From Patescibacteria group bacterium (lineage in GTDB: Bacteria; Patescibacteriota; Minisyncoccia; UBA6257; UBA9933): DNA of 64,000 nucleotides. The stretch is taken from positions 6,266-70,265 of the forward strand of contig JBBTYQ010000005.1 in the NCBI GenBank assembly GCA_038078555.1, in the 5' to 3' direction. The notes under the pieces were generated by a model that did no database searches, was not told the DNA's origin, and saw nothing but the letters and a program-made list of their open reading frames with translations. Of the stretch, positions 14,653 to 37,297 are shown one piece after another. A program made the position numbers and the translations under genes. Numbering within the stretch: the first letter of the stretch is position 1; each line of letters begins with the position of its first letter.

Positions 14653-15942
14653 ATGGATATAAGAGAATTATTTCAAAACAAAGGAAGATTTTATTTTTTA
14701 TTATTTTCTATTGGTTTTTTGATTTTTTTAACGGCGATTAAAGCATTAGCAGTTGACCAGATCAAATCCACCGAATTTTTTGTTTCTTCTTCCGAATCTC
14801 AAATATCTTCAGCCACTAGCACTGATTTTACTATTTACATCGGCGATAATTTAGCCGGAGTTTCTAATCCCGTAAAATCCGCTTATTTTGAAGTATCCGG
14901 AGTTTATACCGGCAGCGGTTCTTTGGAATTAAAAATCGACAACGACACAGCCACTTCCAAAACTTTTTCGTTGCCCAATGTCGGCGCCACTCCAACTCCA
15001 TATGAGATAATTTACAAAGACGATACCAATAAAATCAATCCATCTTCAGCCGGCTCTTACAATTACACTTTAAATATTATTCCCACCGGAATCACTATTT
15101 CCGGATTAGGCGCGGAGATGAAGTTGACTCACAGATATGTTCCGCCTTCTTGTCCTGATGGCCAGCCGACTAACGAAAAAATCAAATCCACCGAATTTTT
15201 TGTTTCTTCTTCCGAATCTCAAATATCTTCAGCCACTAGCACTGATTTTACTATTTACATCGGCGATAATTTAGCCGGAGTTTCTAATCCCGTAAAATCC
15301 GCTTATTTTGAAGTATCCGGAGTTTATACCGGCAGCGGTTCTTTGGAATTAAAAATCGACAACGACACAGCCACTTCCAAAACTTTTTCGTTGCCCAATG
15401 TCGGCGCCACTCCAACTCCATATGAGATAATTTACAAAGACGATACCAATAAAATCAATCCATCTTCAGCCGGCTCTTACAATTACACTTTAAATATTAT
15501 TCCCACCGGAATCACTATTTCCGGATTAGGCGCGGAGATGAAGTTGACTCACAGATATAAGCCGCCGAATTGCGGCGGTGGTTATCCGGCAACTGGAGAT
15601 TTAATTTCTTTGGTTTTTGATACTGGCATTGAAGGCGCGGCTTATAATTCAGTAATGTTTAAAGGTACAAAGCCAGTCAACACAAAAGTAAGGTTTCAAT
15701 TTGCCACTTCCAATAATTCCGGCGGGCCGTGGAGTTATATCGGCGGCGCGACTTGTGCGGTTGGTGATTGGTATGATGTGCCTAATGTTGATTCTCCGGT
15801 AGAAATCACTTGTGCTCCTTCCAGTCATAATAATCAACGATATTTCAGGTATAAAATTCAGTTATGTTCGGCGTCGGATTGTTCGAGCGGCGGCAGTGAT
15901 ACGCCTAGCGTGACAGATGTAGTTGTTAGTTGGTCTCCGTAA
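14653..15942 (+). CDS. secreted/anchored protein (429 aa) with two identical copies of an uncharacterised domain plus a C-terminal Cys-containing domain
   Basis: N-terminal TM (FYFLLFSIGFLIFLTAIKALA). Residues IKSTEFFVSSSE...MKLTHRY occur twice. The C-terminal region contains RYFRYKIQLCS. Confidence 0.75.
   Translation: MDIRELFQNKGRFYFLLFSIGFLIFLTAIKALAVDQIKSTEFFVSSSESQISSATSTDFTIYIGDNLAGVSNPVKSAYFEVSGVYTGSGSLELKIDNDTATSKTFSLPNVGATPTPYEIIYKDDTNKINPSSAGSYNYTLNIIPTGITISGLGAEMKLTHRYVPPSCPDGQPTNEKIKSTEFFVSSSESQISSATSTDFTIYIGDNLAGVSNPVKSAYFEVSGVYTGSGSLELKIDNDTATSKTFSLPNVGATPTPYEIIYKDDTNKINPSSAGSYNYTLNIIPTGITISGLGAEMKLTHRYKPPNCGGGYPATGDLISLVFDTGIEGAAYNSVMFKGTKPVNTKVRFQFATSNNSGGPWSYIGGATCAVGDWYDVPNVDSPVEITCAPSSHNNQRYFRYKIQLCSASDCSSGGSDTPSVTDVVVSWSP
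14761..15558 (+). repeat. perfect 378-bp direct repeat (14761-15138 and 15181-15558), 420-bp period, in frame
   Basis: Line-by-line comparison shows 378/378 identity. A 42-bp non-repeated linker (15139-15180) separates the copies. Confidence 0.95.
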
Positions 15943-15965
15943 TTAGCTTATTAGCTTGATAGTTT
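15942..15965 (+). promoter_or_regulatory. phased 8-nt AGCT repeat array (3 units), followed directly by an ATG
   Basis: ATTAGCTT ATTAGCTT GATAGTTT, then ATG at 15966. Confidence 0.5.
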
Positions 15966-16018: not shown

Positions 16019-16600
16019 ATGCTTCCTTCTTTTTTATCTAAAATTATGGAATCAAATAAGCTAACGAGCTGTCAAACTAACAAGCAGAATAATGGCTTTA
16101 CTCTCTTAGAGCTTTTAGTTTATGTCGCAATCTTGTCAGTTGTGACTATAATACTTAGCGATATTTTTATTTCTTTCAGTCGCGGCAGGGGACAGTCGGA
16201 AGCTTATTCTGAGGTCAATTCCAATATAATGTTTACTATTGAAAAAATCAGCCAAGATTTAAGGTCCGCCACGTCTTCCGTGGCAATTACTATGCCTATC
16301 AGTACCAGTACGCCAACTAATATTTTGTCTGCTGTTGTCGGTGCCAGTACGATTACCTATGCAACGAGTACCGCTGGTCAACTGTTAAGAACCGTTGGCA
16401 GTGATTCTTATTCCATTACCTCTGACTTGGTTAATGTGGATGCGCTAACCTTCAAGCGCTTGGAAAATATAAATCCGGTTTTTGGCGTGAATATGGCTTT
16501 TACGAGTGTTGAGATAAATATTACGATGAGTTATAAGAGCCAAAGTCCGGATTGGCAATATTCTCAGAGTAAGAAAACCACGATAGGAATCAGGAATTAG
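16019..16600 (+). CDS. type IV pilin-like protein (minor pilin / pseudopilin)
   Basis: Prepilin motif NNG-FTLLELLVYVAILSVV. The true start may be the ATG at 16046 (MESNKLTSCQTNKQNNG leader). Confidence 0.7.
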   Translation: MLPSFLSKIMESNKLTSCQTNKQNNGFTLLELLVYVAILSVVTIILSDIFISFSRGRGQSEAYSEVNSNIMFTIEKISQDLRSATSSVAITMPISTSTPTNILSAVVGASTITYATSTAGQLLRTVGSDSYSITSDLVNVDALTFKRLENINPVFGVNMAFTSVEINITMSYKSQSPDWQYSQSKKTTIGIRN

Positions 16601-16605
16601 GAATT

Positions 16606-16995
16606 ATGAATAATGAATCAAATAAAATTAAATCTTTTGTCGATTTAGATGTCTGGAAGGAGGGGCATAAAATGGTTCTAGATATTTATGAAATTACTAA
16701 ACATTTTCCCAGAGAAGAGCAATTTGGATTAATTATCCAATTACAAAGAGCAGCCGTTTCTTTTACATCAAACATAGCGGAGGGATTCAGTAGAAACTCT
16801 TATAAAGAAAAAGTACAATTTTATTCGATAGCTTTAGGTTCGCTTACCGAAATACAAAATCAATTATTAATAGCAAAAGATATCGGTTATATTACATGCG
16901 AAAATTTTGATAATCTTTTTGACCAGACAGTAAAAGTTAGCAGAATCGCCAATGGTCTTATTAAAAAATCTAAATTCATAATTCAAAATTCATGA
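16606..16995 (+). CDS. four-helix-bundle protein (23S rRNA intervening-sequence protein family)
   Basis: Family signature: DLDVWKEGHKMVLDIYEITKHFPREEQFGLIIQLQRAAVSFTSNIAEGFSR...EKVQFYSIALGSLTEIQNQLLIA. Confidence 0.85.
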   Translation: MNNESNKIKSFVDLDVWKEGHKMVLDIYEITKHFPREEQFGLIIQLQRAAVSFTSNIAEGFSRNSYKEKVQFYSIALGSLTEIQNQLLIAKDIGYITCENFDNLFDQTVKVSRIANGLIKKSKFIIQNS

Positions 16996-17432
16996 TTCAT
17001 AATTCTCAAAAAGGAGCCGCCACTTTACCAACTATTATCGCTTTAACCATTTTAATTCTCGCGGTAGGCATCGGCATTACCGCTGTCAGTTTTACCGAAA
17101 GTTTTATTTCCGCAGGTCAAAACCAATCAACCAGAGCTTTATTTTACGCTGAAGCCGGAGCGCGCGATGCTTTGATGCGGATTGCGCGCAATAAAAATTA
17201 TTATTGTACCAGCCCCTCAGCCGGCTGTTATCAGATAGATTTTGTTTCTAGCGGATGTTCAACAAATGAAGGCTGTGCTAAAATAACAGTGAGTGATGCA
17301 AGTTCGCCAAAAGTAATTATTTCCGAAGGCCGAGTGAATAGTAATATCAGAAAAGTTCAGGCTGATGTTTATTTTGACGCCGCGTTTAACGGAGAAATAA
17401 ATAACATTCAGTGGCAAGAACTGACGAATTAA
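16992..17432 (+). CDS. PilX-like pilus minor component
   Basis: ATGA overlap with the previous stop. Hydrophobic N-terminus (GAATLPTIIALTILILAVGIGITAV) followed by ALFYAEAGARDAL, the same pattern as ORF 42938. Confidence 0.55.
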   Translation: MIHNSQKGAATLPTIIALTILILAVGIGITAVSFTESFISAGQNQSTRALFYAEAGARDALMRIARNKNYYCTSPSAGCYQIDFVSSGCSTNEGCAKITVSDASSPKVIISEGRVNSNIRKVQADVYFDAAFNGEINNIQWQELTN

Positions 17433-19107: not shown

Positions 19108-19618
19108 AAATAAAGTTTTTACGATAATTTTTAAGAATTTTTTAAAAGCCGTTGCGGCAATTATTATTGCAATTATTGCGCTTTTATTTTTCAGCCGGCA
19201 AATTGTAAAAATTAGCGAGTCGTTGGCAGAACAACGGGCTTCGGCTTTTATTTTGGAGAAAAAAAATGATGTAATAACTCAGCTTAGCGAAGATTTTAAT
19301 CTTATTGGAGACGCGGATAAAAAAATAGAAAACGCTTTTCCGCCCGCAGAGAATATTTTGGGATTTGTTGCGGCCCTGGAAACTCTCTCAAACCAAACTT
19401 CATTAAATCAGGTTTTGAGTTTTGGCACGCCGGTTGTTTCAAGTATTGATTATAATATCAAGCTTAGCGGAAATATTTCTAATCTGATAAGTTATTTGAA
19501 GCGTTTTGAAAAGCTCCCGTATTTTACGGAAATTTCATCGATAAATTTAAGCGCTTCAAGCGGAAATTGGGAAAACGATTCGTTGATTTCTTTAGAAGCT
19601 AAAATTCATACAAAATGA
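19097..19618 (+). CDS. PilO-like bitopic membrane protein
   Basis: Single N-terminal TM (AVAAIIIAIIALLFF). Overlaps the pilMN stop. The assignment is positional only. Confidence 0.4.
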   Translation: MPSKNKVFTIIFKNFLKAVAAIIIAIIALLFFSRQIVKISESLAEQRASAFILEKKNDVITQLSEDFNLIGDADKKIENAFPPAENILGFVAALETLSNQTSLNQVLSFGTPVVSSIDYNIKLSGNISNLISYLKRFEKLPYFTEISSINLSASSGNWENDSLISLEAKIHTK

Positions 19619-20217
19619 CACTGGAAGTAATTTTAAAAAAAATAAAACTGAAAAAGGTTATTTACCCGATCATTACTTTGGGAATTTTATTAATAGTGGC
19701 TATTGTTTTTGCTTATTCGGCAAAATTTTTATCTCATTCCATCAATAAGGCTCTGTTTCTTGACAGCGCATTGGCCGAATCTCTTTTAATAAAACTTGAT
19801 TTGGGTAAATTTAATTTGATAGCCAATAAATTATCCATTGAAATAAACCTTGTAGTTCCTGAAAAGCCTCAAGTAGAAGAAGCGGCAATCCCCTTAGAAG
19901 AATCAAAAAAAGACGACATTGAATCAGCTCAATTAGACAAAACTGCGGTAAAAATTGCGATTTTAAATAGCACTAAAACAAAAGGCCTAGCCGCTGACCT
20001 TGAAAATTTTTTGATAACTGCCGGTTTTCTAATTGAGCATACGGGAAATACTTCTCCGCTTGAAGCATCAACGGTTATTAAGATAAAAGAAAGTAAAAAT
20101 AATTACAAAACTCTTATAAGAGAAGCCGTCTCTCAAAAATATCAGTTAGCCGAGGACCAAATACTTCAAGAAAGCGAGGAAAATGATATTATTATAATAA
20201 TCGGTTCACCCCGTTAG
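19615..20217 (+). CDS. membrane-anchored LytR_C (LytR/CpsA/Psr C-terminal) domain protein
   Basis: N-terminal TM. C-terminal VKIAILNSTKTKGLAADLENFLITAGF...STVIKIK pattern typical of LytR_C. Confidence 0.55.
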   Translation: MTLEVILKKIKLKKVIYPIITLGILLIVAIVFAYSAKFLSHSINKALFLDSALAESLLIKLDLGKFNLIANKLSIEINLVVPEKPQVEEAAIPLEESKKDDIESAQLDKTAVKIAILNSTKTKGLAADLENFLITAGFLIEHTGNTSPLEASTVIKIKESKNNYKTLIREAVSQKYQLAEDQILQESEENDIIIIIGSPR

Positions 20218-20221
20218 AGAA
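20208..20221. repeat. left arm of a 14-bp perfect inverted repeat bracketing the GIY-YIG ORF
   Basis: ACCCCGTTAGAGAA. Its reverse complement TTCTCTAACGGGGT is at 20474-20487. Confidence 0.9.
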
Positions 20222-20228
20222 TAGTTCA

Positions 20229-20489
20229 ATGATATACACTTACGTCATAAAAAGTAAAAAAGACAGGAAATGGTACACCGGTTCTACTAATGATTTACGG
20301 AAACGCTTTAAGCAGCACAGTAATAACGAAATATCGTCTACAAAGGGACGAGGGCCCTTTATGCTTATTTATTATGAGGCCTGTGTTAATGATCATGACG
20401 CAAGGGTGAGAGAAAAATATTTGAAAACAGGAATGGGTAAAAGATATTTAAAGAATCGCTTAAAGCGTTTCTTTTCTCTAACGGGGTAA
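20229..20489 (+). CDS. stand-alone GIY-YIG nuclease-domain protein (86 aa)
   Basis: IYTYVI...KWYTGSTNDLRKRFKQH...REKYLK, i.e. GIY-(x10)-YTG, conserved Arg and Glu. Confidence 0.85.
   Translation: MIYTYVIKSKKDRKWYTGSTNDLRKRFKQHSNNEISSTKGRGPFMLIYYEACVNDHDARVREKYLKTGMGKRYLKNRLKRFFSLTG
20474..20487. repeat. right arm of the 14-bp inverted repeat
   Basis: TTCTCTAACGGGGT. Overlaps the last codons of the GIY-YIG ORF. Confidence 0.9.
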
Positions 20490-20501
20490 ATAAGATTTTT
20501 T

Positions 20502-21917
20502 ATGTCTCTACGCCAAAAATTAATTTTAACTCTTGGTTTATCTGTTGTTTTAATAATCAGCATAGTTTTTTATTTTTTAGAGATTAACTTAAAAACTCAT
20601 TTAAAAGAGCAGGCATTTAATAATCTTCGAGTTATTGCCGAAATAAATGAAGGAGCTTATTTTATGTTCATTGAAACTTTAAAAACAAGAGTTTTAGATT
20701 GGAGCTCTGATGGATATATCAGGGAAATGGCGGAAAAAATCACAGAATCTCAAAAAGAGAGCGATATTAATGAGTTAAGCAGTTACTTGCGGGAAAGAAA
20801 AATGCCATATGACCATTCGGTAATTTTAGTTGATGTTTTGGATAAAAATGGAATTGTTGTCGCTTCTTCAAGAGATGAGAGGCTTGGATTAGATGAAAAA
20901 GCTGAGGAAGAAAAAATAAAAGCTCATCGCTTCAGTGAAGCGATAAATTCCGATTTTGGAGAATCTTTCACAACCAGCATGATTTATGAATTTGACGAGC
21001 ATGACGAACCGATGATTCATTTGGTTACCAAGATCTTTTCGCTCTCAAGGGATTCTGAAAATAAATTCAAACCATTAGATGCTGTTTTATTGATACATTT
21101 TTCCGAAACCAGTCGGTTTGGTAATATTTTGAGCGGCAAGTGGCAAGAGGGAGAAGGCGCGTTAAGCGGGCAGGCGCTTTATGATAATTATAAAACAGCG
21201 GAAACTTATCTTGTTAACAGCGATCGGCTGATGATTACGCCCTCGCGTTTTATAGAAGATTCTATTTTAAAAATAAATGTTAATACCAAGCCGGTTGAAG
21301 AATGTTTTGAAAGAGAAAAAGAAGTAGTTGGCGAATACCTTAATTATGCGGGCGAGAAAGTATTTGGAGCGTCAATGTGCTTAAAAAGAGACAATGCGGT
21401 ATTAATAACCGAAGTCAAACCTGATGAGATTTTTACGCCGACCGAAGAATTGAAAAAAGATTTTATCTTAAGCGGATTTTTAGTCGTATTTTTAAGCCTT
21501 CTGATGATTATTTTACTTAGCCAGCTTCTTTTAAGGGAATTAAAAAGCGTTTCCGATGCTGCCGATAAAATTTCTGAAGGCGATTTAAGCGCTCGAATAA
21601 AAACAAAATCAAAAGATGAAATAGGCCGTTTGGCGATTGTATTTAATAAAATGCTGGATAAAATAGAAAATTCTCGACTGGAGCTGGAAAAAGTTAATTC
21701 CAGCTTAACTGAAAAAGTGAAGGGAAAAACATCTGAACTTGAAATGGCAAAAAATAGTTTGGAGCGCGAAGTTAGCGAGCAAACAGTTCAATTAAAAGAA
21801 AAATTATCCGAGTTGGAAAAATTCAAAAAACTTACTATTGGACGAGAATTAAAGATGATTGAACTTAAGAAAAAAATAGAAGAATTAGAAAAAGGCCATG
21901 GCGACACTAGCCACTAA
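20502..21917 (+). CDS. membrane sensor with extracytoplasmic domain, HAMP domain and coiled coil, no kinase domain
   Basis: TM1 (LILTLGLSVVLIISIVFYFL); roughly 290-aa external region; TM2 (FLVVFLSLLMIILLSQLLL); HAMP (LKSVSDAADKISEGDLSARIKTKSKDEIGRLAIVFNKMLDKIE); long coiled coil to the end. Confidence 0.7.
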   Translation: MSLRQKLILTLGLSVVLIISIVFYFLEINLKTHLKEQAFNNLRVIAEINEGAYFMFIETLKTRVLDWSSDGYIREMAEKITESQKESDINELSSYLRERKMPYDHSVILVDVLDKNGIVVASSRDERLGLDEKAEEEKIKAHRFSEAINSDFGESFTTSMIYEFDEHDEPMIHLVTKIFSLSRDSENKFKPLDAVLLIHFSETSRFGNILSGKWQEGEGALSGQALYDNYKTAETYLVNSDRLMITPSRFIEDSILKINVNTKPVEECFEREKEVVGEYLNYAGEKVFGASMCLKRDNAVLITEVKPDEIFTPTEELKKDFILSGFLVVFLSLLMIILLSQLLLRELKSVSDAADKISEGDLSARIKTKSKDEIGRLAIVFNKMLDKIENSRLELEKVNSSLTEKVKGKTSELEMAKNSLEREVSEQTVQLKEKLSELEKFKKLTIGRELKMIELKKKIEELEKGHGDTSH

Positions 21918-21944
21918 CCGCTTATCACTTATAATTAAATTAAT

Positions 21945-22445
21945 ATGGATTTAAATAAAACCGATGACCAAAAAGAATTTAATCGCAATCCGGCCGAGCT
22001 TGATATTGGCCAGCTTTTGCCGTTAAGGCCGACCATGGGCGATTCCGTGCCTGTTTTGCTCTGGAGATTAATCAGAATCAGCGGTTTGCATAAAGTTTTT
22101 GAAGAAGAAACGCCCACAATGAGTTATTTTATTGGCAAGCATATCGGAGAAATGTTGAAAGTTGATAATTTAGAAAATCTTAAAGATAAATTAGCCGATT
22201 TAAAAATCGGAAAAATAAATTTTATTGTCAATTCTGATGATAACGTGGAATTTGAAATAGCGGAATGCATTACTTGCAGCGGTATTACGCCGCCTTTAGG
22301 CCGTCCCATTTGCCAGTTGGAGGCAGGCATTATTGCCGGAGCCTTGGAAAACATTTATCTAGGGAAAAAAGTAGTCAGTGAAGAAACAAAATGCATAGGC
22401 GGCTTGGGCGATAAGACGTGTGTAATTGAGTGCAAAATAGTATAA
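21945..22445 (+). CDS. V4R (4-vinyl reductase-like) small-molecule-binding domain protein
   Basis: C-terminal pattern ECITCSG...PICQLEAGIIAGALE...SEETKCIGGLGDKTCVIEC matches my recollection of the V4R Cys/Gly pattern. Confidence 0.55.
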   Translation: MDLNKTDDQKEFNRNPAELDIGQLLPLRPTMGDSVPVLLWRLIRISGLHKVFEEETPTMSYFIGKHIGEMLKVDNLENLKDKLADLKIGKINFIVNSDDNVEFEIAECITCSGITPPLGRPICQLEAGIIAGALENIYLGKKVVSEETKCIGGLGDKTCVIECKIV

Positions 22446-22451
22446 ATTAAA

Positions 22452-23762
22452 ATGATAGATATAAATTTTAATAGAATAAAACTTGCTCACAAGGAAGAAG
22501 CAGATTATGAAAGGTCAAGAACAAAAGTGCTTGAAAAAATTTTAGATAGAAAAACGGCAGAAAGTAATATAAGGCTAAAAGAAAAAATTAGCGAAGCAGA
22601 AAAATCGGAATCCGCCTTGTTTAATATTCTTGAAGATGTTAAAGAGATGGAGGATGTTTTAAAAGAAAAAGGGGAAAGATTGAAAACTATTATTTCCGCA
22701 ATGGGAGACGGATTGCTGGTTATAGATAGAGATTATAGGATTCAATTAATGAATCCGACAGCCGAACGATTGCTTGAAATTGATACTTTGGGGGTAATCG
22801 GCCAGGATGCAAAAAAATTTATAATAATGTATAAAGGCGATCAATTGCTTCCCGATGACGAGCGGCCGGTTGCCCGAATGTTTAAAAATCGCCAGTCAGT
22901 GATAATTTCCAGCCCTGAAGAAGATTTGTATTATCAAACCGTTAACGGCAAGAAATTTCCCGTGGCTATATCAGTTACGCCATTATTGCAGGATAACGGA
23001 ATTTCCGGAGCAGTAGTTGTTTTTCGGGATATCAGCGACACAAAAGCGTTGGATGAGGCGCGAAAAAGTTTTATTTCCTTGGCTTCGCATCAATTGCGCT
23101 CTCCACTTACTGTTATCCGCTGGTATGTAGAACTTTTTAATTCCGACGAATTCGGGAAACTGACTAAAAAACAAAAAGGTTTTCTTAATGATATTCACGT
23201 TTCCGCTTTAAAATTAATAGATACGATAGATTTATTTTTGTCCTTATCAAGAGCAGAAAGCGGCAAAATGGAACTCAATTTGGCCAAAGCCGATATTTTA
23301 GCTTTTACCAAAGGGATTATTAAGGAATTAACTCCGCTGTTTAAAGAAAAGAAACTTAAAGCAAGCCTTGATTTTAAGGGCTCGGTGCTAGAAACTAATT
23401 TTGACGCTTCGCTATTAAGGCAGGTTTTGATTAACCTGATTTCTAATGCCGTTCGTTATACTAATGAAAGCGGTAAGATAGAAATCGGACTGGATAAAAA
23501 TTCTAAAGAAGTAGTTTGTTTTGTTAAAGACGACGGCATTGGCATACCGGAGAATCAGAAAGATAAAGTATTTGGCAAGTTTTTTAGAGCTGACAATGCT
23601 ATTACTAAAATTCAGAATGGCACGGGACTGGGTTTGTCTTTAGTTAAGGCGTTGGTAGAAACCTGGAAAGGACGAGTTTGGTTTGAGTCTCCGGCAACTT
23701 GGTTAATTAAAGGTCGTCAAGAAAAAAAAGGCACAATTTTTTATTTCACAATACCAATTTAA
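22452..23762 (+). CDS. soluble PAS-domain sensor histidine kinase
   Basis: Coiled coil; PAS (MGDGLLVIDRDYRIQLMNPTAERLL); H-box SHQLRSPLT; N box LINLISNAVRYT; G boxes DDGIGIP and GTGLGLSLV. Confidence 0.85.
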   Translation: MIDINFNRIKLAHKEEADYERSRTKVLEKILDRKTAESNIRLKEKISEAEKSESALFNILEDVKEMEDVLKEKGERLKTIISAMGDGLLVIDRDYRIQLMNPTAERLLEIDTLGVIGQDAKKFIIMYKGDQLLPDDERPVARMFKNRQSVIISSPEEDLYYQTVNGKKFPVAISVTPLLQDNGISGAVVVFRDISDTKALDEARKSFISLASHQLRSPLTVIRWYVELFNSDEFGKLTKKQKGFLNDIHVSALKLIDTIDLFLSLSRAESGKMELNLAKADILAFTKGIIKELTPLFKEKKLKASLDFKGSVLETNFDASLLRQVLINLISNAVRYTNESGKIEIGLDKNSKEVVCFVKDDGIGIPENQKDKVFGKFFRADNAITKIQNGTGLGLSLVKALVETWKGRVWFESPATWLIKGRQEKKGTIFYFTIPI

Positions 23763-23768
23763 TTTATC

Positions 23769-24131
23769 ATGAAGAAAGTTTTAATAATTGAAGACGACGA
23801 AGCAATTTCAAGAGTTTACTCTATTAAATTAAATCAGGGAAAAGCGGAAACAATTATCGCTTCTGACGGCGAAGAAGGTTTTAAAAAAATTACTTCGGAA
23901 AAACCCGATTTAATTTTACTTGACTTGATGCTTCCTAATAAAGACGGTTTTTGGGTTTTGGAAGAAATTGCCAAGCATGCAGAGCTTAAAAAAATTCCTG
24001 TTTTAATTTTATCTAATCTCGGCCAGCAGGCTGATATTGATAGGGCAATGAAGTTGGGCGCTAAAGATTATTTTATAAAAACCAGCATTTCGGTTAATGA
24101 AATGGCGGAAAAAATCAATAAATATCTTTAA
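23769..24131 (+). CDS. single-domain response regulator (CheY-like receiver only)
   Basis: VLIIEDDE...DLILLDLMLP...PVLILSNLG...GAKDYFIK. 120 aa with no output domain. Confidence 0.9.
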   Translation: MKKVLIIEDDEAISRVYSIKLNQGKAETIIASDGEEGFKKITSEKPDLILLDLMLPNKDGFWVLEEIAKHAELKKIPVLILSNLGQQADIDRAMKLGAKDYFIKTSISVNEMAEKINKYL

Positions 24132-24287
24132 GCGCTTAACGCAACAAGTTGTCGAAAGAATCAGAAAAAGTCTGGCATTATAAACTCGTTATGGTGTGTG
24201 GGTTATCCACAGCCATTGCTTGTTTTTATTTCTGCATAATTTAAAATAATAGAAACAAGTCGTTTTAATTTATTTATAAAATAATTT

Positions 24288-24986
24288 ATGACACAGCCAA
24301 GAGGAATAAGAGAAATAGGGAAAAAAGGTTTTACGCTTTTGGAGCTTTTAATTGTTATCGGCATTATTGCCGTATTATCAGTTGCTATTATTTTCGTGCT
24401 CGACCCGGCGGAAACTTTAAGGAAATCGCGCGATGCTCAGAGGATGTCGGATTTAGCAACGCTTAAAACCGCTTTGGGAATCTATGTAACAAGTAAAACT
24501 ACGCCTTATTTGGCAGGCGCAGCTTCTAATACGGCTTGCAAAACTAATTCTGGTTATGCTTCCGGCGATAAAGTATATTACAGCTATTCCAGCGATTCGC
24601 CTGGCGCCCTTATTACTGATACCACTCTTGACGGAGGAACAACCGATCCTTCTGCCGGTCAAGTGTTTAACTCTTCTACCTCGCTTACCAATGCCACGGG
24701 TTGGCTGCCGGTTAATTTAGACAGCTTAACGGGCGGTTCTCCGATATCGGCAATGCCGACTGATCCGGTAAATACTATTGCTACTCCGTCGGCAGTTGTT
24801 TCGACCGATTTAGTTTATCGATATGTTTGCAATTCCGATACGCTTAAATATGAAATTGACGCTCAATTGGAAAGCACCGCTTATACCAGCGATGATAATA
24901 AGCGCACCAAAGACGGCGGCAATAACAGCAACTATTATGAAGTTGGCACGGGCTTGAATATTTTAGGCAGCGGAACGGATTTCTAA
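24288..24986 (+). CDS. type IV pilin (major-pilin candidate of locus 1)
   Basis: Leader MTQPRGIREIGKKG, then FTLLELLIVIGIIAVLSVAI...RDAQRMSDL. Followed by a strong terminator, consistent with a highly expressed monocistron. Confidence 0.85.
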   Translation: MTQPRGIREIGKKGFTLLELLIVIGIIAVLSVAIIFVLDPAETLRKSRDAQRMSDLATLKTALGIYVTSKTTPYLAGAASNTACKTNSGYASGDKVYYSYSSDSPGALITDTTLDGGTTDPSAGQVFNSSTSLTNATGWLPVNLDSLTGGSPISAMPTDPVNTIATPSAVVSTDLVYRYVCNSDTLKYEIDAQLESTAYTSDDNKRTKDGGNNSNYYEVGTGLNILGSGTDF

Positions 24987-25004
24987 AATAAATAAAAAAT
25001 AAAA

Positions 25005-25033
25005 AACAGCCCCGCAAAAAGGGGCTGTTTTTA
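25005..25033 (+). terminator. rho-independent terminator after the pilin gene
   Basis: AACAGCCCC-gcaaaaa-GGGGCTGTT followed by a T-run. Confidence 0.85.
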
Positions 25034-25045
25034 TTATAATAAAAA

Positions 25046-25054
25046 TGATATAAT
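25046..25054 (+). promoter_or_regulatory. extended -10 promoter element TGATATAAT upstream of pilB-1
   Basis: TG-n-TATAAT at 25046-25054. No good -35. In an AT-rich context, so only moderate confidence. Confidence 0.4.
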
Positions 25055-25063
25055 TTTTTTAAG

Positions 25064-25127
25064 AAAAGCTTGCTAACTAATTAGCTAAACAACAAAACCG
25101 CTAAAAAGCCAAAGAGCTTTAATATGC
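25064..25127 (+). promoter_or_regulatory. phased 8-nt AGCT repeat array in the pilB-1 leader
   Basis: AAAAGCTT GCTAACTA ATTAGCTA AACAACAA AACCGCTA AAAAGCCA AAGAGCTT TAATATGC. The ATG is at 25124. Confidence 0.6.
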
Positions 25128-26839
25128 ACATTGTAGAGGAAAAATTAAAATCAATTTTTAAAAAATCAGGGCTTGTTGACGATAAAGTTTTTGAATCCGC
25201 TAAAGAAGAATCTTTAAGGTCGTCGCAGACTATTGCTGATGTATTAATTGGACGCGGAACAATTCCCGAGGATTATATGGTTGAACTTTTACAGCCTTAT
25301 TTTGGCGCAAAAATAGTTGATTTGAAAAAAATAATTATTCCGCCGGAAATTTTGGAATTAGTGCCGGAATCTTATGCTAAATCAAAAAAAGTAATTATTT
25401 TTGAGATTGATAAGGAAAATAATATTGTCAAAGCGGCCATGATTGACCCCTTGGATTACGACGTTCTAGAATTTTTAAGAGCTAAGCTGGACGCTTGGGT
25501 AGAACCGCATTTAACAACTCAAAGCAGTTTAAAATACGGGCTTAAGCAATATAAGAAAAAAATAAATTTGGAATTTAATAAAATAATTGCGGAAAATATT
25601 GAAAAAACTCTTTCGGTCGTGGGTGAACCGGATTTGAATAAAATGGCCGAAGCGGTTCCGATTATCACTATTTTAGACAGCATAATTGAGCAGGCAGTTA
25701 TTTTGGGGGCTTCCGATATTCATTTTGAGCCGTTAGCCAAAGAAGTTTTGATAAGATACCGGGTTGACGGAGTGATGCAGGAGATTTTAAGTTTGCCTAA
25801 AATAATTGCGCCGATTTTAGTTGCTCGGGTAAAAGTTTTAGCCAGCCTTTTAATTGACGAACATCGTTTGCCTCAAGATGGCCGCTTTAAATTCGAGCTT
25901 GAAGATATAAGCATTGATATCCGCGTCAATATAATGCCGGTTTTTCACGGAGAAAAAGTTGAAATGCGTATTTTAAAAAGTTCAGCTCGGCCGATTGGCT
26001 TGGAAGAGCTTGGCCTTTCAAAAAAAGCCGTTGATTTAATTTATGGGGAAATCAAGAAAACCCACGGCATGATTTTAGTAACTGGTCCGACTGGCCACGG
26101 AAAAACCACAACCCTTTATTCAATTTTACAAATTTTAAATACTTCAAAAGTAAATATTACTACCATTGAAGACCCGATTGAGTACGAAATTTCGCGCATT
26201 AATCAAACTCAAGTAAATACTAAAGCTGGTATTACTTTTGCCAATGGTTTGCGGTCGCTTTTAAGGCAGAATCCCGACATAATTATGATTGGCGAAATTC
26301 GCGATAATGAAACCGTTGATATTGCAGTGCATTCGGCCTTAACCGGCCATTTGGTGCTTTCCTCGCTTCATACCAACGACGCCGCCAGCGCTTTGCCGAG
26401 ATTATTAGATATGGGCGCGCCGGCTTTTCTTCTTTCCTCGACTGTTAATATGATTGTGGCTCAGAGATTGGTGAGAAAAATTTGCAGTTTTTGCATTGAA
26501 TCTTATCCAATCACTCCGGAAATAAAAAGGCTGATTATGGCCCAATTATCGGCTGTTCCGGAAACGCCGATTAAAGCAAAAAATCTTCCAACAAGATTAT
26601 TCCGGGGCAAGGGATGTAAGATTTGCAATAATTCCGGCTTTCATGGGCAAATCGGCGTATTTGAAGTTTTAAGAGTTACGGATAGTATCCGGGAATTGTT
26701 GCTGAAGTTGGTGCCGGTTGGAGAAATAAGAAAACGCGCTATTAAAGAAGGTATGACGACTTTATTTGAAGATGGCTTGGATAAGGTCGAAAGAGGAACA
26801 ACGACGATTGAAGAAGTGTTAAGAGTAATCAGAGAATAG
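25124..26839 (+). CDS. pilB: type IV pilus assembly ATPase PilB (GspE family), copy 1
   Basis: Walker A GPTGHGKTT; Walker B/Asp box DIIMIGEIRD; His box GHLVLSSLHTND; tetracysteine CSFC...CKIC; N-terminal T2SSE_N-like region. Confidence 0.9.
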   Translation: MHIVEEKLKSIFKKSGLVDDKVFESAKEESLRSSQTIADVLIGRGTIPEDYMVELLQPYFGAKIVDLKKIIIPPEILELVPESYAKSKKVIIFEIDKENNIVKAAMIDPLDYDVLEFLRAKLDAWVEPHLTTQSSLKYGLKQYKKKINLEFNKIIAENIEKTLSVVGEPDLNKMAEAVPIITILDSIIEQAVILGASDIHFEPLAKEVLIRYRVDGVMQEILSLPKIIAPILVARVKVLASLLIDEHRLPQDGRFKFELEDISIDIRVNIMPVFHGEKVEMRILKSSARPIGLEELGLSKKAVDLIYGEIKKTHGMILVTGPTGHGKTTTLYSILQILNTSKVNITTIEDPIEYEISRINQTQVNTKAGITFANGLRSLLRQNPDIIMIGEIRDNETVDIAVHSALTGHLVLSSLHTNDAASALPRLLDMGAPAFLLSSTVNMIVAQRLVRKICSFCIESYPITPEIKRLIMAQLSAVPETPIKAKNLPTRLFRGKGCKICNNSGFHGQIGVFEVLRVTDSIRELLLKLVPVGEIRKRAIKEGMTTLFEDGLDKVERGTTTIEEVLRVIRE

Positions 26840-26841
26840 TT

Positions 26842-26921
26842 TTTAGCTTTCTAGCTCCTTAGTTATAAAAGTTATAAACTAACGAGCTGATAAGCTATCA
26901 AGCTAACTGGCTTATATTATG
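26842..26921 (+). promoter_or_regulatory. phased 8-nt AGCT repeat array filling the pilB-1/pilC-1 intercistronic gap (10 units)
   Basis: TTTAGCTT TCTAGCTC CTTAGTTA TAAAAGTT ATAAACTA ACGAGCTG ATAAGCTA TCAAGCTA ACTGGCTT ATATTATG. Confidence 0.7.
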
Positions 26922-28142
26922 TTTTTTTCTTACGAAGCAACAGATAAAAACGGATTATTAGTAAGAGGCAGATTAGAAGCCGAAAGCCGCGCTGAAGTTA
27001 TTCAATATCTGGAAAAGCATGATCTTATTCCGATAACCATTGATGCTGAAGGCGGAGAAAGAACAGGCAACCGCGCTTCAATGCTGTCTTTTTCTATTTT
27101 TGAAACAATCAAACCGGTTGATCGCATACTTTTGGTTCGCAATCTGGCTGCTACGATTAAAGCCGGTTTAAATATTATTGAATCGCTGGATATTCTTATT
27201 GCCGACACGACAAAAAATTTAATGAGAAAAATTCTTATTTCTGCAAAAGCGAATCTTCAAAAAGGCCAGCCGCTTTCTTCGACTTTTGAATATTATAAAA
27301 AATATTTCCCGCCGATTTTTAGCGGATTGATTAGAGCCGGTGAAGCTTCCGGAAAATTGGATGAATCTTTTGAGGAATTGGGCCGTTATTTGGTGAAAGA
27401 ATATAATTTAGCAAGAAAGGTCAGGTCAGCATTGGCTTATCCAATGGTTCTCGTGGTGGCAAGCATTGGAGTAATAGGTCTGCTTTTATTTTTTGTTCTG
27501 CCTCGTTTGGCTAAATCTTTTAAAGCGAGCAAGGCGGAGCTTCCTTTTCTTACCAGAGCGCTTGTCGGCACGAGTAATTTCTTAATTTCTCACTGGATTC
27601 TTGTTTTAGCGGCAGTCATTGGATTAGTTTGGTTTTTCGTTTATTTCAGAAAAACATCTTTCGGCCGTCATTTGCTCACTAGAATATTTTTGACAGTTCC
27701 AGTGGCGCGGGAGCTTGTTAAAAAAGTGGCTTTAGTGCGCTTTACAAGGACTCTGGGCAGTTTGATATCAAGCGGCATAAATATTATCGAAGCTTTGAAG
27801 CTTTCAACCGAAGCGGTTTCTAATGAAGTTTATAAAAAAGCGATTTTAGAATCAGTGGACCAGATAAAAAACGGCGTGCCCTTGTCCAAAACATTGATAA
27901 AACATCAATCACTGTTCCCTCACTTGCTGATAAACATGATAGCCGTGGGCGAGCGAACCGGCACTTTAGAGCAAGTATTAAATACATTTGCCGATTTTTA
28001 TGACGAAGAAGTGGATAACGCGCTCAAGGATTTAGTGACTTTCATAGAACCGGTATTGATTCTTTTTATGGGTTTGATAATCGGAACTATCGCTTTTTCG
28101 ATTCTTTTGCCTATTTATCAATTAGTTGGAAAATTCATCTAG
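26919..28142 (+). CDS. pilC: type IV pilus platform protein PilC (GspF family), copy 1
   Basis: Two T2SSF repeats, 3 TM segments, C-terminal FIEPVLILFMGLIIGTIAFSILLPIYQL. Confidence 0.9.
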   Translation: MFFSYEATDKNGLLVRGRLEAESRAEVIQYLEKHDLIPITIDAEGGERTGNRASMLSFSIFETIKPVDRILLVRNLAATIKAGLNIIESLDILIADTTKNLMRKILISAKANLQKGQPLSSTFEYYKKYFPPIFSGLIRAGEASGKLDESFEELGRYLVKEYNLARKVRSALAYPMVLVVASIGVIGLLLFFVLPRLAKSFKASKAELPFLTRALVGTSNFLISHWILVLAAVIGLVWFFVYFRKTSFGRHLLTRIFLTVPVARELVKKVALVRFTRTLGSLISSGINIIEALKLSTEAVSNEVYKKAILESVDQIKNGVPLSKTLIKHQSLFPHLLINMIAVGERTGTLEQVLNTFADFYDEEVDNALKDLVTFIEPVLILFMGLIIGTIAFSILLPIYQLVGKFI

Positions 28143-28172
28143 TAATGATTATTAAATGCGGCTTAAAACGAA

Positions 28173-28634
28173 ATGCGAAAATTTAAATTTCAAAAAGGAT
28201 TCAGTTTGTTGGAATTATTGCTTGTTGTCGGCATTCTTTCTATTATATCATTAGTTGCCTTTGGAGCGTATCGCGACTTTGTAAAAAATTCCGGGCTTGA
28301 TTCAATTGCCAAAGGCATCATTTTTGATTTAAAAGGCGCGCGAGCCAAAGCAATGACTGCGGAAAATAACTTAAAATGGGGCGCTCATTTTATCAACAGT
28401 ACTGATGATTATTACGAGATATTTTCCACGCCAACCGACTATTCCAGCGCTTCAACAACCATTGATTCAACCGTATATCTTGGGGGAAATATTTCTTTCA
28501 GCGAACCGGCGGTTTCTTCAACGATTATTTTTGCTAAAATAAAAGGCACGATCTCCGCTACCACAACTATTACTGTTATTTCTGAAAGCAACAGTAAAAC
28601 AATAACCGTGACTCCGATTGGAAATATTTACTGA
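28173..28634 (+). CDS. type IV pilin-like protein (minor pilin, FimT/GspH-like size)
   Basis: MRKFKFQKG-FSLLELLLVVGILSIISLVAF. Confidence 0.75.
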   Translation: MRKFKFQKGFSLLELLLVVGILSIISLVAFGAYRDFVKNSGLDSIAKGIIFDLKGARAKAMTAENNLKWGAHFINSTDDYYEIFSTPTDYSSASTTIDSTVYLGGNISFSEPAVSSTIIFAKIKGTISATTTITVISESNSKTITVTPIGNIY

Positions 28635-28705
28635 ATTTAAAGCAATAAGCGTTTTAGCCTAATTTGACTTTCTTCGGGATTTTATTTATTATTAACGGAT
28701 TAAAA

Positions 28706-29206
28706 ATGAAAAAAATCAGCCAAGAAAACGAAGCGGAAATAGTCTGGCAGATTCCGGAATATGAATATCAGCCAAAAGATGTTAACTGGTTTTGGTTAAG
28801 CTTGATTTTGGCGATAATTATGTTGGCTTTTTCTTTTTGGCAGGAAAATTTTTTATTTGCGATTTTCGTCTTAATTGCATTTTTTGTGGTTAATGTTTTT
28901 GCGCGCCGATTTCCGCCGATTTGGGAATTTAAAATTAATAAGAGCGGAATTTCTTTGAATTTAACCACTGGAGAAAATAAACGATTCTATGGCTATAATG
29001 ATATTGAGAGTTTTGATATTCACGACGCGGGCGAGGAATATAAAGAATTGATTTTACAATTTCACAAAAAATTTTCACCGCATTTAAAAATTAATATTCA
29101 TTCATCGGACGAGGAAAAAATTAAGAGATTTTTAACGCAATTTATAAAACAAGAAGAAATTGAGCCGTTATTGATTGATTCCTTGTCAAAATTAATACGA
29201 TTTTAA
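28706..29206 (+). CDS. membrane protein (2 TM) of unknown function
   Basis: ATG at 28706 is preferred over the TTG at 28664. TM pair WFWLSLILAIIMLAF / FLFAIFVLIAFFVVNVF. Confidence 0.45.
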   Translation: MKKISQENEAEIVWQIPEYEYQPKDVNWFWLSLILAIIMLAFSFWQENFLFAIFVLIAFFVVNVFARRFPPIWEFKINKSGISLNLTTGENKRFYGYNDIESFDIHDAGEEYKELILQFHKKFSPHLKINIHSSDEEKIKRFLTQFIKQEEIEPLLIDSLSKLIRF

Positions 29207-32875: not shown

Positions 32876-33940
32876 ATGCTTAGTTTTTTAAAATCATTTT
32901 TCACAGGAAATTCGGTCTTAGGAGTTGATATCGGCACATCTTCTATAAAAATAGCGGAAATTTCGAAATCTTCGGAAAAGCCCAAACTAAAAAATTACGG
33001 AATCCTGGAAGCTCAAAGCCACTTGGAACGTTCTAATAGCGCTTTGCAGACTAATTCCTTAAAATTAGCCGATAAAGAAACCGCTAAGCTTATTAGCGCT
33101 CTTGTAGAAAAATCAAGATTTAAAACTAAAAATGTGGTTGCTTCCATCCCGTCTTTTTCTTCTTTTGTTACGCTTGTGGAAATGCCGAAAATGAGCAATG
33201 AAGAAGTTAATAAAACAATGTCTTATCAGATTCGCCAGTATATTCCTTTGCCTGAATCGGAAGTGGCGATAGATTGGATTAAAGTTGGCGAATCAGAAAG
33301 TGAAGGTATTATTAAACAGCAGATTTTATTGGTATCAATACCCAACGAAGAAATCAGAAGATATCAGAATATATTCAAGCTGGCAGGTTTGAAATTAAAG
33401 TCTTTGGAAATTGAAAGCATGGCTTTATCAAGAGCATTGGTTTTTGGCGACTTAACGCCGACAATTTTGGTTGATATCGGAGCTTATTCTACCAATATCG
33501 CGGTTGTGGAAAATGGATTTTTAAAAAGTAATATTTTTACGGATTTTGCCGGTTCTTCTTTAACTCAGGCGATTGCTAACGGTCTGGGCATTGAGATGAA
33601 GCGGGCCGAGGAATTAAAAAAACAAAAAGGTCTTAAAGCAACCGGCGGCGAATATCAGTTATCCACATTGCCTCAGCCGTTTCTCGATGTTATAATAGGA
33701 GAAGTTGTAAGAATCAGAGAAAATTTTGAAGCCAAAAAAAGTAAAAAAATAGAAAGAGTGCTTTTGGCCGGCGGTGGCGCGAATTTAATCGGTATAGAGG
33801 AATATTTTGAAAAACAAACTGGTTTGCCGTCTGCTTTAGGTAATGCCTTGCTTCGAGTGGACTATCCCAAAGAAACAGAATTATTTTCTAAAGAATTGGG
33901 TGCAGAGCTTGCGGTGGCAATTGGTTTGGCGATTAAGTAG
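32876..33940 (+). CDS. pilM: type IV pilus assembly protein PilM
   Basis: VLGVDIGTSSIKIAEI N-terminus, actin-like fold motifs (ILVDIGAYSTNI, LLAGGGANLIG). 354 aa. Confidence 0.85.
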   Translation: MLSFLKSFFTGNSVLGVDIGTSSIKIAEISKSSEKPKLKNYGILEAQSHLERSNSALQTNSLKLADKETAKLISALVEKSRFKTKNVVASIPSFSSFVTLVEMPKMSNEEVNKTMSYQIRQYIPLPESEVAIDWIKVGESESEGIIKQQILLVSIPNEEIRRYQNIFKLAGLKLKSLEIESMALSRALVFGDLTPTILVDIGAYSTNIAVVENGFLKSNIFTDFAGSSLTQAIANGLGIEMKRAEELKKQKGLKATGGEYQLSTLPQPFLDVIIGEVVRIRENFEAKKSKKIERVLLAGGGANLIGIEEYFEKQTGLPSALGNALLRVDYPKETELFSKELGAELAVAIGLAIK

Positions 33941-33975
33941 TAATTTTAAAAAAGACTGGAAAATAAAATTAAAAA

Positions 33976-34542
33976 ATGCCATATAATCAATCGGTTATTG
34001 AAGAGCAATTAAAAAAAAAGGAAAGCACATCAGCCGGATTGCCGCTTAAGCTTTTTAGTTTAAGTTTAATAATTTTTTTGACCTCAATCTTTATTTATAT
34101 TGGCATAGCCTTCGGTTATCGGCCTTATTTAAATTCAGAAATTAAAAAATTGGAAAGCGAAATTTTCAATTTAACTCAATCGATTGATGAAACAAAACAA
34201 AAACAGATTATCAACTTTTATTACCAGTCATTAAATATAAAAAATCTTTTAAACTCGCGAATTACAATTTCAAGAATTTTCGACCTTATTGAGAAAAATA
34301 CTTATTCTAACGTTAAATACGGCAATTTTTCATTAAACGTAAACAATAAAGAAATAAGAATAGACGGAGTTGCTCCTAATTATGAAACCGTGATAAAGGA
34401 ATTGGCTTTATTTGAAAGCGTTGAAGGAGTGGAAAAAGTTTATTTGGAAAATTTTTCAGCAATAGATTCTTTAAAAACAAAGGGAGTATCTGAGATTAAT
34501 TTTGTTATAAAGTTGGTTTTAAACGAAAAAATTTTAAAATAA
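33976..34542 (+). CDS. PilN-like bitopic membrane protein
   Basis: Single TM (LFSLSLIIFLTSIFIYIGIAFGY), then a coiled segment. Position between pilM and the pilO-like gene. Confidence 0.55.
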   Translation: MPYNQSVIEEQLKKKESTSAGLPLKLFSLSLIIFLTSIFIYIGIAFGYRPYLNSEIKKLESEIFNLTQSIDETKQKQIINFYYQSLNIKNLLNSRITISRIFDLIEKNTYSNVKYGNFSLNVNNKEIRIDGVAPNYETVIKELALFESVEGVEKVYLENFSAIDSLKTKGVSEINFVIKLVLNEKILK

Positions 34543-34544
34543 TT

Positions 34545-35096
34545 ATGAAAGGGTCAGCAAAAAGAACGTTGAGCATTTTCTTGGCCATGTTGTTTCTAAT
34601 CGGCTCATTTTTGGTTTATTTTTACTTTATTAATCCGGTTTATGCTGAAATTAAAATTTTAAGGGGCAAGAATATTTCTTTGAAACAAAATCTTGAGAAT
34701 TCCAAAATTTTAAATGAAAAATTTGAAAAAATTCTTGGTGATTATGAAAATATTAAAGTTCAAGACAAGTTGTCGTTAATGCTGCCTGAAAAATTAAATA
34801 TTTCCTATGCGGTTAGCCAAATAATCGGCATTGCCCGGATTAATAGTTTATCGATTCAATCATTAAATGTTAAAGAACTGGCAATTACGCCCTCGCGGAC
34901 TTCGTCAAAAGGTTTAGGCACCTTAAGAATTGAAGCGAGAATGTCGGGTAATTACGAAAATTTAAAGTTATTTTTTAACAATCTAGAAGAAAATTTAATG
35001 ATTTCCGATCCGCTTGAATTAAAAATAGAAGCCCAAGTAGGTAATCCAAGCATGTCGTATTCATTAGCAATAGATACATATTATCAAGCGGAATAA
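34545..35096 (+). CDS. PilO-like bitopic membrane protein
   Basis: TM (LSIFLAMLFLIGSFLVYFYFI) followed by a coiled coil. Positional. Confidence 0.55.
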   Translation: MKGSAKRTLSIFLAMLFLIGSFLVYFYFINPVYAEIKILRGKNISLKQNLENSKILNEKFEKILGDYENIKVQDKLSLMLPEKLNISYAVSQIIGIARINSLSIQSLNVKELAITPSRTSSKGLGTLRIEARMSGNYENLKLFFNNLEENLMISDPLELKIEAQVGNPSMSYSLAIDTYYQAE

Positions 35097-37241: not shown

Positions 37242-37297
37242 ATAAGTTATTTAGTTTATTAGCTATTGAGCTAATAAACTATCAGCCAATATTAAAA
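37242..37297 (+). promoter_or_regulatory. phased 8-nt AG(C/T)T repeat array in the pilB-2/pilT intercistronic gap
   Basis: ATAAGTTA TTTAGTTT ATTAGCTA TTGAGCTA ATAAACTA TCAGCCAA TATTAAAA, then ATG at 37297. There is a one-nt phase slip in unit 6. Confidence 0.55.

Follow-up and report, generated by a model that had tools for sequence, protein, structure and literature searches.

The pilB-1/pilC-1 junction carries a phased octamer array

The DNA studied here is a 64,000-nt stretch (positions 6,266 to 70,265 of contig JBBTYQ010000005.1, assembly GCA_038078555.1; hereafter the window) with 37% G+C, from a Parcubacteria-type Patescibacteria genome of the Hainich groundwater, and the element in question occupies the 79-nt gap between two type IV pilus genes, pilB-1 and pilC-1 (Table 1). 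The stop codon of pilB-1 lies at 26837-26839 and the ATG of pilC-1 at 26919. A first-pass annotation, made from the letters alone, had parsed this gap as ten in-phase 8-nt units, five of them with an exact AGCT core in one register, and the sequence reads exactly so: the exact copies start at 26845, 26853, 26885, 26893 and 26901, which all share one phase modulo 8. One-base variants of AGCT number three rather than the four that had been counted, as AAGT (unit 4) differs at two positions; TTAT (unit 10) has a single base in common with AGCT, and this last unit, ATATTATG, bears no likeness to the motif.

Scored as ten phased units, the array reaches 32, whereas 300 dinucleotide shuffles of the whole window average 22.1±0.9 and never exceed 26. 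The same shuffles contain at most three in-phase exact AGCT copies, against the five found here. Among all 256 tetramers at period 8, only ATAA and AAAA likewise reach five in-phase copies, and AGCT is the sole G/C-containing tetramer to do so. The overall frequency of AGCT in the window is as expected (232 observed, 216 expected), and its densest cluster in the 64 kb is the array in this gap. The phased AGCT pattern between pilB-1 and pilC-1 is real and goes beyond chance.

No period-8 array was called at this site by Tandem Repeats Finder (TRF), because the units are too divergent, and no two identical octamers lie side by side. What TRF did call were a perfect 9-nt duplication, AGTTATAAA twice, from which a one-base phase slip of unit 4 follows, and a 16-nt period at 26874-26904. 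It is true, as had been pointed out, that no GGAGG-type Shine-Dalgarno (SD) sequence precedes the pilC-1 ATG, but this is not distinctive, as a 5-mer SD core is found at only 6 of the 63 genes of the window (a 4-mer core at 12).

The array doubles as a hairpin

Read as RNA, the array forms an imperfect hairpin (26837-26905) with 28 pairs, a 3-nt loop and a minimum free energy (MFE) of -24.4 kcal/mol, compared with -12.7±2.5 kcal/mol for shuffled sequences (z -4.6), none of which was equally stable in 200 attempts. The units of the left arm are of the type TAGCTY and those of the right arm are the reverse, RAGCTA; both arms resemble one array because AGCT is self-complementary. The outer predicted helices pair 26837-26842 with 26900-26905 and 26844-26849 with 26892-26897, and the inner ones 26852-26857 with 26884-26889 and 26859-26868 with 26872-26882. 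Pair probabilities are 0.99 in the two central helices and close to 0 for the register displaced by 8 nt, so that register shifting, one of the two possibilities envisaged in the annotation, is not predicted. Pairing begins with the pilB-1 stop codon as its first triplet, and the last paired base lies 13 nt 5' of the pilC-1 ATG. Within this linker, 26906-26913 is partly open (unpaired probability 0.4-0.8 over 26907-26913), and from 26914 onwards, the pilC-1 start codon included, the RNA is predicted to be unpaired (~0.9).

A terminator scan of the gap reported none; A and U dominate the stem, and the run of U begins 16 nt past the last paired base, within pilC-1. Promoter prediction for 26840-26918 gave nothing convincing. 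Neither an intrinsic terminator nor an internal promoter is thus supported for this element, and co-transcription of pilB-1 and pilC-1 is likely. As the folding is far above that of shuffled sequences, a role at the RNA level, in processing or translation, is plausible. Rfam searches with gathering and with permissive thresholds returned for the element only sub-threshold look-alikes of miRNA hairpins, and over the whole window two tRNAs and no rRNA.

Table 1. Features of the window that belong to or are compared with the pilB-1/pilC-1 element
Feature	Coordinates	Strand	Basis or remark
pilB-1, T2SSE ATPase (PilB-type), upstream cistron	25124..26839	+	Pfam T2SSE
pilC-1, T2SSF platform protein (PilC-type), downstream cistron	26919..28142	+	Pfam T2SSF
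Ten 8-nt units	26842..26921	+	AGCT core exact in five units, one base off in three, two off in one, three off in one
Left arm: UAGUUU, UAGCUU, UAGCUC, CUUAGUUAUA	26837..26868	+	opens with the pilB-1 stop UAG
Perfect 9-nt tandem duplication AGTTATAAA x2, hairpin apex	26861..26878	+	TRF, fold
Right arm, units reversed: UAUAAACUAA, GAGCUG, AAGCUA, AAGCUA	26872..26905	+	fold
Linker, 13 nt, without SD	26906..26918	+	pair probabilities
Second phased AGCT-type array (AAAAGCTT GCTAACTA ATTAGCTA ... AAGAGCTT), pilB-1 leader	25064..25123	+	score 23
Perfect 13-bp hairpin TAGTTTATTAGCT-attg-AGCTAATAAACTA, pilB-2/pilT gap	37252..37281	+	z -4.9
Three units ATTAGCTT ATTAGCTT GATAGTTT	15942..15965	+	stop of ORF 14653-15942, 5' of pilin 16019
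TIGR02436/PF05635 cassette with heptamer arrays TAGGAAT.. (16584-16618) and ATTCATA.. (16974-17005)	16584..17005	+	

The pilB-pilC junction of related genomes takes three states

We compared the pilB-pilC gaps of 80 species-level Patescibacteria pilus loci (numbered with the prefix L), most of which measure 3-25 nt. In the search for relatives, the next-nearest PilC protein was only 67% identical, and the gap can therefore not be aligned for covariation. Besides the empty junction of most genomes, two further states occur: a hairpin made of arrays only fills the gap in the window, L003, L325 and L019, and arrays together with an open reading frame (ORF) of the TIGR02436 family are present in L009, L020, L022, L023, L032, L057 and L077. 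In L003, a Wolfebacteria metagenome-assembled genome, the 98-nt gap consists of ten GATAGCTT-type units at a spacing of 8 or 9, called by TRF with period 8, 8.5 copies and a score of 73, and a second, near-perfect array of this genome, (GATAGCTK)n, lies between a histidine-kinase and a response-regulator gene. Weaker AATAGCTC arrays, likewise of octamers with an AGCT core, are present in L018. In L325, the 79-nt gap folds into a hairpin in which TAGGTGT-type units face (ACCTAAA)x4, the pilB leader is (GTCATAA)x9 extending to the ATG, and the pilC-pilin gap is (GAGTAGG)x5 plus a hairpin; the octamers ACGAGCTT and GTAAGCTC occur at four sites of this locus.

Equivalent gaps thus carry units as unrelated as GTCATAA, ACCTAAA, GAGTAGG, TGACAAT and GGAACAC, and the positions in L325 indicate that the habit of carrying an array is conserved while the unit is not. 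A comparison of orthologous pilB-pilC gaps had been suggested in the annotation; in those compared here short-unit arrays recur, with an AGCT core in L003, but there is no overall conservation of the unit. If one insertion point is defined by a left arm that opens a few nt from the stop of pilB and a right arm that closes ~4-20 nt ahead of the pilC start, the element studied here shares it with cassettes that carry an ORF (L009, L020, L057), which extend from shortly past the stop to ~10 nt short of the ATG, and with L003 and L325.

In L009, L020 and L057, the gap contains a 133-aa ORF that has a (TGACAAT)n array on one side and a (GTCAATT)n array on the other. This ORF belongs to TIGR02436/PF05635, the '23S rRNA intervening-sequence protein' family of four-helix-bundle proteins, which is related to Avd of diversity-generating retroelements (DGR). 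Once adequate flanks are considered, each of the 12 TIGR02436 genes in the loci, seven of them in the pilB-pilC gap, proves to lie between short-unit arrays that are complementary to each other, and such arrays likewise surround the copy in the window itself and those of two further species. The flanks of the L325 gene are AGCT-core octamers that form a 26-nt perfect inverted repeat; in the two further species they are (ATGAATY/AGGAATY)n and (ATTCATR)n, and one of these sites follows PilC and a giant pilin, the other an ABC binding protein. The TIGR02436 protein, with >5000 homologues and 70-79% identity in many Patescibacteria, is better conserved than PilC. Between the arms of the pilB-1/pilC-1 element, which are joined by the 3-nt loop, there is no ORF. 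In the literature searched, we found no description of repeat-armed inverted repeats bracketing TIGR02436 genes at pilus junctions, and likewise none of arrays at pilin 5' ends in Parcubacteria.

Short tandem arrays form a family in Patescibacteria

When 738 kb from 78 Patescibacteria loci were surveyed by TRF, with a minimum score of 40 and a minimum of 3.5 copies, 37 arrays of period 7 and eight of period 8 emerged, compared with none in five shuffles, and periods of 6, 9 and 12 were nearly missing. Clearly non-coding positions account for 26 of the 45 arrays, and the other 19 lie at the 5' end of an open frame, in most cases that of a pilin gene; a complementary partner lies no more than 700 nt away for 23 of the 45. 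Twelve pilin-like genes (in L007, L008, L009, L022, L024, L029, L032, L057, L062, L322 and L325) have a 7-8-nt array 0-19 nt 5' of the point where the mature N-terminus (FSLLELLIV...) begins to be encoded, often with the probable start codon within the array. For several of these pilins an in-frame ATG or TTG is found 9-10 codons upstream, inside the array, so that successive array units provide start codons in different frames. The flanking arrays of two other species have identical copy numbers across 10 + 10 strain-level contigs that differ by single-nucleotide polymorphisms, and L325 and L326 are identical in sequence, though they come from different samples.

Two wider scans were made with AGCT-type patterns. 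A metagenome scan with GATAGCTNGATAGCTNGATAGCT gave at least 120 matches; among those listed, most are eukaryote-like GATA/GATAGCTA microsatellites from one sample, Ga0126342, and these matches are therefore uninformative for the candidate phyla radiation. In a viral scan with (AGCT-N4)x4, the matches listed (L082-L201) include many phage and giant-virus contigs with long, near-perfect 8-nt repeats, among them the WWWAGCTW-like units GTTAGCTT, GATAGCTT, ATTAGCTT and AATAAGCT. Octamer repeats with AGCT are thus common, but as the search pattern selects AGCT, no enrichment of AGCT can be inferred from it.

Within the genome under study, AGCT clusters occur in four of the 45 intergenic regions of at least 25 nt, and all four are pilus-gene junctions; a further 15.7 kb of housekeeping DNA on the same contig has no AGCT array (~80 kb overall). 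The window-wide scan ranks the pilB-1 leader array second, with a score that tops every shuffle, and this array lies directly 3' of a predicted extended -10 element, TGATATAAT (25046-25054), and of a terminator at 25002-25032. The hairpin in the pilB-2/pilT gap contains AGTT, AGCT, AGCT and AACT spaced by 8 nt, with a predicted extended -10 element upstream (37226-37234). The arms of the TIGR02436 cassette of the window are 32 nt long and 81% complementary, and they can pair in several 7-nt registers. Its four-helix-bundle gene (16606-16995) has a pilin gene and a pilin-like gene as neighbours; the ATG lies within the left array, and the stop codon overlaps the ATG of the next ORF (ATGA) within the right array.

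Other observations in the window and its surroundings

The second densest AGCT cluster of the window, four copies in 32 nt at 46781-46812, is coding and unrelated to the intergenic arrays: it falls in the coiled-coil segment of ORF 45542-46927 on the minus strand, which has a coiled-coil N-terminus followed by peptidoglycan-binding and fn3-like domains. The 10-mer CTAACGAGCT is shared by the right arm of the pilB-1/pilC-1 hairpin (26878-26888) and the part of pilin gene 16019 that codes for the leader peptide (16058-16068), and it is also found twice 5' of a pilin gene in L018 (2441-2460; one copy with a mismatch); ACGAGCTT, moreover, recurs as the octamer unit of L325. The sharing could be due to chance, as 11-mer matches are expected within 64 kb.

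Pilus genes form two clusters, at 16019-29206 and at 32876-43327. The first codes for pilins, a fused PilM-PilN protein (17506-19107), HAMP and V4R proteins, PilB-1 and PilC-1, together with a PAS histidine kinase and a receiver-only response regulator, and the second for PilM, PilN, PilB-2, PilT, PilC-2, a prepilin peptidase and several pilins. Upstream of the first cluster, a heptamer array, CAATTTA x4.7 (6324-6356), occupies the 49-nt gap 5' of a beta-lactamase-family gene (6365-7351), which is followed by genes for two secreted-looking proteins of 1375 and 1033 aa and then by the cluster. An ORF for an 86-aa GIY-YIG nuclease (20229-20489), absent from the list of open reading frames, is the sole one in the 284-nt gap that separates 19615-20217 from 20502-21917. 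A tRNA gene on the minus strand (50571-50642) has a partial 5' copy at 50955-51018, 357 nt away and 81% identical over 32 nt, and the minus strand between the two copies resembles, by eye, the C-terminal part of another GIY-YIG protein; this arrangement may be the scar of an insertion at the tRNA gene. On the same contig, ~3-6 kb 5' of the window (L328, 240-3056), a pair of neighbouring N4/N6 DNA methyltransferase genes, together with a 414-aa ORF of no assigned function, resembles a restriction-modification system, with a 64-aa cold-shock-domain (CSD) protein nearby. Avoidance or enrichment of AGCT through restriction-modification was considered and rejected, as the tetramer occurs at its expected frequency and nothing ties these methyltransferases to AGCT.

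Comparison with known systems

The statement of the annotation that no described element has this unit is literally true, but the class to which the element belongs has been described, in the form of 7-8-nt simple sequence repeats shortly 5' of start codons and of hairpins with repeat arms (PMC4679880, PMC12721329). Long simple sequence repeats (SSRs) with units of 5-11 nt, heptamers predominating, are known from prokaryotes (Mrazek et al., 2007, summarised in PMC4679880). TAACTGA repeats occur in Beggiatoaceae, Cyanobacteria and Bacteroidetes, and heptamer repeats directly 5' of SD-less start codons have been described, to which no function was assigned (PMC4679880). The arrays of Parcubacteria resemble these long SSRs in their short, non-triplet tandem units, in their intergenic position, often a few nt from an SD-less start codon, in their sporadic phylogenetic distribution and in having no assigned function, and the Parcubacteria heptamer GTCAGTT/CAACTGA is one base off TAACTGA/TCAGTTA. 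The array at 26842-26921 is longer than its composition predicts, has a non-triplet period of 8 and is non-coding, as is characteristic of long SSRs. The heptamers of the short tandemly repeated repetitive (STRR) sequences of cyanobacteria also belong to this class. Unlike these SSRs, the arrays described here typically have a complementary partner with which they form a hairpin, come with many different units in one genome, and concentrate at pilus-gene junctions and around TIGR02436 genes; the pilB-1/pilC-1 array further differs by its 8-nt unit, its palindromic core and its strong decay.

Intervening sequences (IVSs) with an S23p ORF, known from Coxiella and Leptospira, are excised from 23S rRNA by RNase III (PMC4990558). 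They share with the positional equivalents of the element a gene of the S23p/PF05635 family, the long stem of inverted sequences flanking it and the location within a longer transcript. In contrast to the rRNA IVSs, the element lies between protein-coding cistrons and has arms of 7-8-nt tandem units, and the copy between pilB-1 and pilC-1 has no ORF. A different parallel is provided by the (ATCTTTC)n repeats of Haemophilus influenzae hmw1A and hmw2A, which form a 5'-untranslated region (5'-UTR) hairpin that is cut by RNase III and controls adhesin expression (PMC12721329). There, too, a repeat array 5' of a surface-adhesion gene is one arm of a long hairpin, and its effect is post-transcriptional; transcription of the element described here is likely from its context. 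The hmw repeats are perfect and variable in number between strains, and their right arm is a non-repeat, G-rich sequence, whereas in the pilB-1/pilC-1 element both arms consist of repeats, the array is degenerate, and related arrays are free of copy-number variation.

A probably decayed inverted repeat and its possible function

The element is best read as a short-unit SSR arranged as a hairpin and not as a platform for an AGCU-reading protein. By architecture and position, it is a member of a family of repeat-armed inverted repeats with 7-8-nt tandem units, which is found at type IV pilus gene junctions of Parcubacteria. As to class and origin, it is probably an ORF-less and partly decayed octamer-repeat inverted repeat. 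TAGCTT-type units would have built the left arm and reversed AAGCTA units the right arm, and the strict 8-nt phase would be the legacy of tandem duplication followed by substitutions without insertions or deletions. If the element is co-transcribed with pilB-1 and pilC-1, as its context suggests, the mRNA would contain an interrupted double-stranded RNA (dsRNA) stem of ~28 bp, which would begin at the pilB stop codon and leave 13 nt up to the pilC start. We propose that this stem could serve as an intercistronic processing or uncoupling site, at which RNase III-type cleavage would part the pilB and pilC segments; alternatively, the stem might alter stability or re-initiation. An RNase III-type activity is suggested by the analogy with the 23S rRNA IVSs and with the hairpin in the 5'-UTR of hmw, and we consider a function of this stem in RNA processing to be possible, but put it forward tentatively. 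Taken as a whole, the explanation that a decayed family member functions as an intercistronic dsRNA stem is given a probability of about 0.55.

Several observations weigh against this explanation. No RNase III gene was found within the ~80 kb examined. The two closest-scoring relatives, L001 and L002, have a pilB-pilC gap of 3-25 nt, as do most genomes, and the element is therefore dispensable. The grouping of L003 as the sister of the window, in a neighbour-joining tree of PilB and PilC, has no support values. What points to a derivation of the element from a TIGR02436 cassette is its position and its architecture, and its arms are unlike those of the TIGR02436 cassette in the window. Finally, when 17 array hairpins were folded on both strands, the sense strand was better in only six (mean difference +1.3 kcal/mol), and this lack of a sense-strand advantage means that there is no G-U signature of selection at the RNA level.

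The missing strand advantage, the many relatives that lack the element and the lack of an RNase III gene in the ~80 kb examined make a neutral or selfish remnant a serious rival, which we nevertheless regard as unlikely. According to this explanation, slippage created the array or a repeat-armed mobile cassette was inserted and lost its cargo, and what is left is decaying without any effect on the pilus. It would fit the loss of intact units, of which five in ten remain, and the failure of TRF to call the array, and the four-helix-bundle gene has features of a mobile element: its product is far more similar between genomes than PilC (65%), and many of its homologues lie on short contigs. The IVS of Coxiella has also been described as a selfish element (PMC4990558). 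A remnant without function does not readily explain, however, why AGCT-type arrays have been kept at four pilus junctions in this genome and at two sites in L003 despite saturating divergence (PilC 65% identity), why the stem with its 28 pairs is still intact and far more stable than shuffled sequences, or why it is placed as precisely between the pilB stop and the pilC ATG as the cassettes that carry cargo.

Other readings start from the AGCT unit itself. The annotation had argued that an 8-bp period speaks against DNA binding, but the met-boxes of MetJ and the ACTC boxes of ParG are 8-bp tandem operators read by ribbon-helix-helix (RHH) dimers, so that the argument does not hold. Like these operators, the array has an 8-bp period, a palindromic tetramer core and AT-rich spacers, and one could picture a repressor or activator of a pilus regulon that binds double-stranded (ATAGCTAT)n, an AGCT core with an AT-rich spacer, with one dimer per unit. 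All four AGCT arrays in ~80 kb adjoin pilus genes, and two of them lie just 3' of predicted extended -10 elements. We consider such an operator very unlikely, as Pfam scans of ~60 of the 63 window ORFs found no RHH or other DNA-binding regulator domain, the response regulator of the cluster has no output domain, no promoter is predicted at the element, and related genomes carry unrelated units at the same positions, several of them even within one genome (L325); nor would an operator explain the pairs of inverted arrays around a gene. Even less credence is given to an oligomeric RNA-binding protein that reads phased AGCU units, (AUAGCUAU)n, on single-stranded mRNA and controls pilC translation, which the annotation had derived from TRAP and HutP. 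Phased short motifs in leader or intercistronic RNA are indeed what these proteins recognise, the element does contain phased AGCU copies and three UAG triplets 8 nt apart, and candidate RNA binders are at hand in the CSD protein encoded just beyond the window and in the Avd-like four-helix-bundle protein. The details disagree: TRAP needs single-stranded RNA in which nine to eleven (G/U)AG triplets are separated by 2-3-nt spacers and HutP two sets of three UAG with 4-nt spacers, whereas UAG occurs only three times here (26844, 26852 and 26860), with 5-nt spacers and predicted to be paired in the stable stem. Among the ORFs scanned, neither a cognate protein nor a Pfam hit to any known family of oligomeric RNA-binding attenuators was found, and the unit is not conserved across positional equivalents. 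What stands of the RNA-level cis element proposed in the annotation is thus a non-random, strongly folding and probably co-transcribed feature, but not its reader. We find it hardly credible that the element is a phase-variable contingency locus, in which slippage would add or remove 8-nt units and thereby tune pilC expression. Pilus and surface genes are typical contingency loci, hmw sets a precedent (PMC12721329), and the near-perfect arrays of L003 and L325 are in principle prone to slippage, but the pilB-1/pilC-1 array has no two identical adjacent octamers, and copy numbers are invariant both among the strain-level contigs of the two other species and between L325 and L326.

Implications for Patescibacteria and their pili

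On its own, the pilB-1/pilC-1 element is of modest interest, as it adds one more short-repeat hairpin in an operon gap. The wider comparative pattern, with arrays at pilus junctions and at pilin 5' ends and with bracketed TIGR02436 genes, is the more interesting lead. One might speculate, although we think it improbable, that the 7-8-nt inverted arrays and the TIGR02436 genes are one undescribed IVS-like system of Patescibacteria that colonises the cistron junctions of pilus and surface operons, in which the protein, Avd-like and probably oligomeric, would recognise phased repeats both in the arms of its own cassette and in copies that have no ORF, 26837-26905 among them, and would thereby link the processing of RNA or the expression of pilus genes to the cassette. 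If this were true, it might also account for the unexplained heptamer repeats that Cyanobacteria, Bacteroidetes and Beggiatoaceae carry (STRR, TAACTGA). Should the stems be sites of RNase III cleavage, they would determine the stoichiometry of the pilus motor and platform proteins in episymbionts that depend on their pili, and this would provide a testable function for a very large uncharacterised protein family, and perhaps for bacterial heptamer repeats in general.

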